Below are positions 38,251-38,709 of a stretch of 64,000 bases of DNA, piece by piece. Position 1 is the stretch's first letter. Each line of letters starts with the position of its first letter. The stretch comes from Escherichia phage VEc74. The notes beneath the pieces are model-generated. The model saw only the letters and a list, made by a program, of their open reading frames with translations, searched no databases and was not told the DNA's origin. The stretch is from sequence record MT932213.1; one strand, given 5' to 3'. A program made the translations under genes and the position numbers.

Positions 38251-38709
38251 TTATTTTAAATCATCTGCCCAATCGAGTTTAAGAGGCTCTTTGTATTCAC
38301 GATCTAATACGACCGGAATTTGTACATCACCGCTAAATGATAAGGGCCCAACATTATAAGACAATGTTATATGCGGTGTGTAATCATCAAAATCATGTGT
38401 AGCACCTAGTGCCCGCGCATACATGTGTCGACAGCGCAGATATTCAGAATCTAGCACAAGTACAAGAGTCGATCCATCTTGTGTTTTCCATACTTCTAAA
38501 TGTCCAGAAGAAGCTACTTCAAAACTTCCACTCGATGGAACATACGGAACATTTACTCTTGAATAACATATGGTCGAATGAATTTTTTCTCTAGGAACTG
38601 GATTAGGAACACGTAAAGAGCGCTGGAGTTCTTCCAGCGCGTCAAGTGTTAATTCTGAAAACTTAGCTGCTACATAAAGACCCGTTGAAAAGTCTTTAAA
38701 TTCCATCAT
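38251..38709 (-). CDS. 57B: 2H-phosphoesterase-like protein at the T4 57B position (Acb1-type anti-CBASS nuclease candidate)
   Basis: 152 aa; two H-x-[TS]-x motifs (HSTICYS, HITLSY); immediately upstream of 57A as in T4. Confidence 0.65.

Follow-up and report, generated by a model that had tools for sequence, protein, structure and literature searches.

We analysed a 64,000-nucleotide stretch of the genome of Escherichia phage VEc74 (MT932213.1; referred to below as the window), in which two genes on the minus strand are of interest as inhibitors of CBASS immunity: gene 57B and gene vs.4. The sequence-only reading of this DNA had described a 152-aa ORF at positions 38251 to 38709, and an ATG-started ORF occupies exactly this interval on the minus strand. 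The features discussed here are as follows.

38251..38709, minus strand: acb1 (gene 57B), predicted 152-aa anti-CBASS 2H phosphodiesterase (ATG-started ORF; Pfam, PDB and T4 identity)
38572..38580, minus strand: first catalytic motif, HSTI, H44-S45-T46 (CAT TCG ACC), read from the sequence
38365..38373, minus strand: second catalytic motif, HITL, H113-I114-T115 (CAT ATA ACA), read from the sequence
38706..38936, minus strand: gene 57A, tail-fibre assembly chaperone (Pfam PF17594, E=4.3e-51)
38936..39661, minus strand: gene 1, dNMP kinase, first gene of the 1-57A-57B chain (Pfam PF21448, E=5.5e-106)
36916..38178, minus strand: internal-protein (IP) locus, four small genes directly downstream of acb1 (PHROG internal head/virion protein families)
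34004..34758, minus strand: tRNA cluster, nine contiguous genes (Rfam scan)
26558..26824, minus strand: acb2 (gene vs.4), predicted 88-aa cyclic-dinucleotide sponge (PDB 7UQ2, Pfam PF24729, T4 identity)

The gene chain and its surroundings

The genes of the 1-57A-57B chain overlap at their ends. As read from the sequence, the TAA stop codon of gene 1 overlaps the ATG of 57A (TAATG) and the TGA stop codon of 57A overlaps the ATG of acb1 (ATGA), the latter of which suggests translational coupling. For gene 1, the PF21448 match covers residues 15-246 of a TTG-extended ORF, and we infer a start at 39661 from this match and the length of the T4 gene. The order of gene 1, 57A, 57B and the IP locus is that of T4 and RB32, and acb1 is the last gene of a chain running from gene 1 through 57A to 57B, whose three members are closely coupled as they are in T4. 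It had been claimed that 57B lies immediately upstream of 57A. The adjacency stands and the direction does not: because 57A and 57B are both encoded on the minus strand, "upstream" holds in plus-strand coordinates only, and in transcription 57B is downstream (3') of 57A.

Consensus scans for promoters and terminators around the acb1 locus gave counts no better than those in shuffled sequence, and the same was true of a search for the T4 late-promoter sequence TATAAATA. We draw no conclusion from one TATAAATA that occurs within gene 1, upstream of 57A (39292..39299, minus strand). The Rfam scan of the whole window returned tRNA genes only, with no structured RNA near acb1 or acb2.

On the other side of acb1 T4 has a single anti-restriction gene, ipI, at the place where VEc74 has four IP genes. 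These match PHROG internal head/virion protein families (E=1e-49 to 8e-23) and encode proteins of 85 aa (Ip5-like), 90 aa (Ip9-like), 102 aa (Ip7-like) and 74 aa, all of which start with MKT(F/Y/S)(K/Q)EF. We take this start to resemble the T4 capsid-targeting sequence. Beyond the N-terminal motif, alignment of the four IP proteins revealed no likeness to IPI (16-27% identity). The same Ip7/Ip9/Ip5 arrangement is found in RB32, where the annotation reads "Ip5 replaces ipI". Hobbs et al. described acb1 as adjoining ipI in an anti-defence neighbourhood (PMC9117128). The injected IP proteins of VEc74 are possibly anti-defence proteins; the locus is context for an anti-defence island and lies outside the Acb1 mechanism.

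A repeated cassette of ~70-80 nt precedes each of the IP genes (36822..38266; four copies, 65-91% identical); one of these copies comes directly behind the stop codon of acb1. All four combine an early-promoter-like TTTAC(A/T)-N17-TA(C/T)TAT with a short segment able to fold into a hairpin (at 38201..38228, for example, GATGAGGTA...TACCTCATC), with a Shine-Dalgarno sequence and with conserved first codons. The cassettes look like substrates for recombinational cassette shuffling.

Further along, the tRNA cluster holds genes for Arg-TCT, Asn-GTT, Tyr-GTA, "Met"-CAT, Thr, Ser, Pro, Gly and Leu, of which "Met"-CAT is probably the T4-type Ile-CAU and Tyr is barely over the Rfam threshold (30.3 bits vs 29). 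Compared with the eight tRNA genes of T4, VEc74 gains Asn and Tyr and is without Gln. The T4 cluster is interrupted by the segB homing-endonuclease gene, whereas that of VEc74 is without segB.

The 57B product and the Acb1 family

In a profile search, the 57B product matched Pfam PF23474 (Anti-CBASS protein Acb1) with 202.7 bits (cutoff 27; E=2.7e-60), and the alignment of residues 9-150 ran over profile positions 1-144 of 144, which is the full-length profile. It also matched the Acb1 structures PDB 7T26/7T27 (E=4.2e-62). When compared with T4 gp57B/Acb1 (NP_049750.1; Hobbs et al. 2022, PMC9117128), whose gene lies at NC_000866 73952..74410 on the minus strand, the VEc74 protein was identical at 152/152 residues (100%), the catalytic tetrad included. 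At the DNA level the two genes are 99.1% identical and are separated by four differences only, each at a third codon position and synonymous, a pattern consistent with purifying selection. The T4 gene likewise follows 57A and gene 1 and stands beside the internal-protein locus. An Acb1-type gene at the 57B position had been put forward as a candidate from the letters of the sequence, and the alignments to T4 Acb1 and to PF23474 bear this out. On these matches we put the probability at about 0.97 that 38251..38709 is the acb1 gene (57B) of a T4-like phage (Tequatrovirus) and encodes an anti-CBASS 2H phosphodiesterase; no evidence contradicting this assignment was found in the analysis. Judged by its sequence, the product reproduces the founding member of the Acb1 family, that of T4, without a single amino-acid change, and is as such already known.

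The gene is widespread among related phages. A close DNA match to acb1 was present in 554 phage records, nearly all of them T-even phages of Escherichia, Shigella or Yersinia, and over the 24 kb around acb1 the window was 96-97% identical (coverage ~90%) to Tequatroviruses, among them vB_EcoM_Ozark, phiD1 and T2, which places VEc74 among the T4-like phages.

The active site of Acb1 is an HxT/HxT tetrad composed of H44, T46, H113 and T115 (PMC9117128). All four residues are present in VEc74 Acb1, and the two H-x-[TS] motifs that the sequence-only reading had pointed out (HSTICYS and HITLSY) turn out to be H44-S-T46 and H113-I-T115, the two halves of this published tetrad. The protein has five histidines, exactly two of which (H44 and H113) stand in H-x-[ST] motifs. 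As a control, H-x-[ST] motifs were counted in every ATG-started ORF of at least 80 aa in the window. At least two such motifs occurred in 2 of the 45 ATG-started ORFs of 100-250 aa in the whole window, and the 57B ORF was the only ATG-started ORF of the window with two H-x-[ST]-hydrophobic motifs. We rejected the motif pair as proof by itself, given that it is uncommon but not unique among ORFs of similar size. By itself the pair is suggestive, weak evidence for a 2H enzyme, and it is therefore the full-length homology that decides the assignment to Acb1.

The Acb1 homologue of Erwinia phage FBB1, solved without ligand (PDB 7T26) and with 3'3'-cGAMP (PDB 7T27), has a 2H phosphoesterase fold with a C-terminal lid (PMC9117128). 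It comes from another phage and another host and is 68% identical to the VEc74 protein over 142 residues, with one single-residue gap; the ~32% of residues that differ include S45 of VEc74, which is T in FBB1, and several surface positions. The HxT/HxT tetrad and the C-terminal lid-forming region of the two proteins line up. Compared with the solved FBB1 structure, residues 9-149 of VEc74 Acb1 are predicted to adopt the same compact 2H phosphoesterase fold with a C-terminal lid.

Other viral proteins follow the strategy of Acb1, the enzymatic destruction of a cyclic-nucleotide immune signal of the host: the poxins of poxviruses and insect viruses, the AcrIII-1 ring nuclease and Apyc1. Their folds are unrelated to that of Acb1 and their substrates are 2'3'-cGAMP, cA4/cA6 and cNMPs, and the four viral classes of cyclic-nucleotide nucleases are structurally distinct (PMC9117128). 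VEc74 acb1 is outside the poxin, AcrIII-1 and Apyc1 families.

The acb2 gene at the vs.4 position

The sequence-only reading had also noted an ORF at the vs.4 position, 26558..26860, and had assigned it to Acb2 by synteny. An ORF on the minus strand is indeed present, but these limits are those of the maximal TTG-started ORF, and the 5' end does not hold: it lies 36 nt beyond the real ATG at 26824. This ATG is preceded by the Shine-Dalgarno sequence GAGGAAG and shares nucleotides with the 3' end of the gene before it; at the other end of acb2, its TAA stop codon overlaps the ATG of vs.3. The assignment has support from homology too, not from synteny alone, since the 88-aa product matched PDB 7UQ2 (T4 Vs.4 with cGAMP; E=3.6e-53) and Pfam PF24729 (Acb2_Tad1_hairpin; 70.4 bits, cutoff 27, E=1.4e-19) and was identical to T4 Vs.4 at 83/88 positions (94%). 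The gene has the same length as that of T4 Vs.4/Acb2 (PDB 7UQ2; Jenson et al. 2023, PMC10097602; Huiting et al. 2023) and the same place between vs.5 and vs.3. The VEc74 allele is 100% identical at the DNA level to that of many deposited Tequatroviruses, for example Sf22, Aplg8 and several BASEL phages.

At the vs.5 position, the ORF of VEc74 (26817..27038, minus strand; PHROG 1986) encodes 73 aa and is thus longer than in T4 (58 aa) and T2 (45 aa); it shares 8 nt with the start of acb2, where T4 has a 36-nt gap. The slot directly upstream of acb2 thus appears variable.

Published work on T4 Vs.4 identified Y8, H11, K23, R79 and F82 as contacts to cGAMP and L29, A66, A73 and A77 as hexamer-interface residues; T12, S74 and L60 were hits in a screen, and the protein binds cGAMP with a Kd of about 30 nM (PMC10097602). 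All of the cyclic-dinucleotide contacts (Y8, H11, K23, R79 and F82, plus S74 and T12) are invariant between VEc74 Acb2 and T4, and all four interface residues are kept. The five substitutions relative to T4 (E13D, L44F, N46S, C50D and F52L) spare every residue that Jenson et al. tested functionally, and four of the five fall within residues 44-52, a stretch that we infer to be a loop. From T4 Vs.4 it is predicted that the VEc74 protein, an allele that differs at five positions, forms a hexamer and binds cGAMP. In T4 Acb2, the residues Y37, A57, L60, D61 and T64 have been proposed to exclude cyclic trinucleotides by a clash with cA3 (PMC10312549). These five residues are unchanged in VEc74 Acb2, so that binding of cyclic dinucleotides only would be expected, like that of T4 Acb2.

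In the alignment, the Acb2 protein of phage T2 (NC_054931 1091..1351) has an altered N-terminus (MKILRD-KPHT...) without the cGAMP-stacking Y8, which confirms a remark in the Panoptes literature (PMC12657218), whereas VEc74 keeps Y8. We considered whether the VEc74 protein might, like that of T2, have lost its function naturally and rejected this, as the alignment shows that Y8 is kept. VEc74 has an intact, T4-type acb2 despite ~97% identity to T2 over the surrounding 24 kb.

Predicted action of Acb1 and Acb2 in VEc74

The VEc74 protein is identical to T4 Acb1, and therefore the published T4 work applies to it directly. Fractionation guided by activity traced the breakdown of 3'3'-cGAMP in T4-infected cells to gene 57B (PMC9117128). 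In the same work, the scissile phosphate was found positioned over the H44/T46/H113/T115 tetrad, and Acb1 cut 3' of adenosine in a metal-independent reaction of two steps, in which a cyclic-phosphate intermediate is converted into a linear 3'-phosphate; the H44A/H113A variant was catalytically dead (PMC9117128). Acb1 prevented activation of the effectors Cap5, Cap4 and CapV, hydrolysis of cGAMP was lost in T4 ΔAcb1 lysates, and T4 ΔAcb1 grew normally in the absence of CBASS and had a >300-fold defect in its presence (PMC9117128). Cleavage assays, histidine mutants, plaque assays with ΔAcb1 phage and a Vs.4-cGAMP structure are thus all already published for T4.

By analogy to the identical T4 protein, VEc74 Acb1 would bind cyclic oligonucleotides made by the CD-NTases of host CBASS systems, namely 3'3'-cGAMP, cUA, cAAA and cAAG; cGG and the 2'-5' bond of 3'2'-cGAMP would not be among its substrates. 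The enzyme would strain the ring of the ligand such that the 2'-OH of adenosine attacks the adjacent 3'-5' phosphodiester, with H44, T46, H113 and T115 serving in acid-base catalysis to yield a 2',3'-cyclic-phosphate intermediate and then a linear 3'-phosphate such as GpAp. With the signal destroyed, CBASS effectors (Cap4, Cap5, CapV and those of the NucC type) would stay inactive and no abortive infection would follow. Cleavage of 3'3'-cGAMP and cAAA and rescue from CBASS are predicted for VEc74 on this ground, and acb1 is presumably expressed and used as in T4. Hexameric Acb2, judging by the T4 protein, would sequester three cyclic dinucleotides per hexamer and no cyclic trinucleotides. Because Acb2 would leave cyclic trinucleotides unbound, the nuclease and the sponge would cover partly complementary sets of signals.

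There are other ways to read these genes. One is that 57B is a LigT-like 2'-5' RNA ligase, or an RNA-repair enzyme or cyclic phosphodiesterase acting on RNA ends, for which the cleavage of cyclic oligonucleotides would be a side activity. The label "RNA ligase" is attached to the family in RefSeq (T4, RB32, RB14 and others) and in PHROG 755, and the tRNA cluster at 34004..34758 is located ~3.5 kb downstream of acb1 in the direction of transcription. A 2H fold with two HxT/S motifs is common to LigT and CPDase enzymes. That 57B shares these features with them is a superfamily-wide likeness that does not discriminate, and at E<=0.01 the only Pfam family to match 57B was Acb1 (PF23474); profiles for LigT or 2'-5' RNA ligases gave no match. 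Moreover, the published biochemistry is one of rapid, specific cleavage of CBASS signals, and T4 ΔAcb1 was impaired only when CBASS was present (PMC9117128); no RNA-ligase activity is reported in the Acb1 literature cited here. In view of the missing LigT-family match and the CBASS-specific phenotype we rejected a role in RNA ligation or RNA repair, which we consider highly improbable; the "RNA ligase" label was apparently transferred automatically, before 2022, on the strength of similarity within the superfamily.

Loss-of-function alleles arise naturally in close relatives, as in Bas43, which has a nonsense mutation in acb1 (PMC13577387), and in T2, whose Acb2 is without Y8 (PMC12657218), and both proteins can trigger Panoptes-type guards, such that VEc74 acb1 might be present but silent or dispensable, either not expressed or under selection for loss. 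However, VEc74 has an intact acb1 ORF whose product is identical to the active enzyme of T4, the nucleotide differences from T4 acb1 are all synonymous, the coupled 1-57A-57B arrangement is preserved, and the accompanying Acb2 keeps Y8 and all other binding residues. A silent or decaying acb1 is unlikely because the ORF is intact, its changes are synonymous only and translational coupling is preserved; indeed, we give this reading next to no credence. For acb2, the five substitutions might alter ligand spectrum, stability or recognition by host sensors relative to T4 Vs.4 and so shift the balance between evasion of CBASS and triggering of Panoptes. The basis for such a reading is the clustering of the substitutions only, and many deposited Tequatroviruses have the same allele; we regard the reading as very unlikely.

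The reading of the two genes as an intact acb1 and an intact acb2 is in line with the earlier proposal that the phage may carry both a nuclease and a sponge, since homology confirmed both genes. Their co-occurrence is no novelty: T4 has been stated to carry both Acb1 and Acb2 (PMC10312549; PMC12657218), and single and double acb1/acb2 deletions have already been built (PMC12657218). Two Panoptes systems respond to these proteins. Type I Panoptes is triggered by Acb2 (PMC12657218), and Panoptes type II restricts Tevenvirinae that express Acb1, with escapers that inactivate acb1 (PMC13577387). With both genes intact, broad evasion of CBASS and sensitivity to Panoptes are predicted for VEc74: the phage would be expected to evade most CBASS signalling that uses 3'3'-cGAMP, cUA or cAAA, and to be sensitive to Panoptes-type guards, which detect when cyclic nucleotides are depleted (PMC12657218, PMC13577387). 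The finding is correct and already known, in that both published anti-CBASS genes are intact in VEc74; its use lies in annotation and host-range prediction only, and it advances no open question.

Public labels for the two proteins vary. Acb1 is called "RNA ligase" in RefSeq and in PHROG 755 and "hypothetical protein" in most GenBank records, and Acb2 homologues are annotated as hypothetical throughout. The function of Acb1 was assigned in 2022, and the product names in RefSeq and PHROG trail the literature of 2022-2023.
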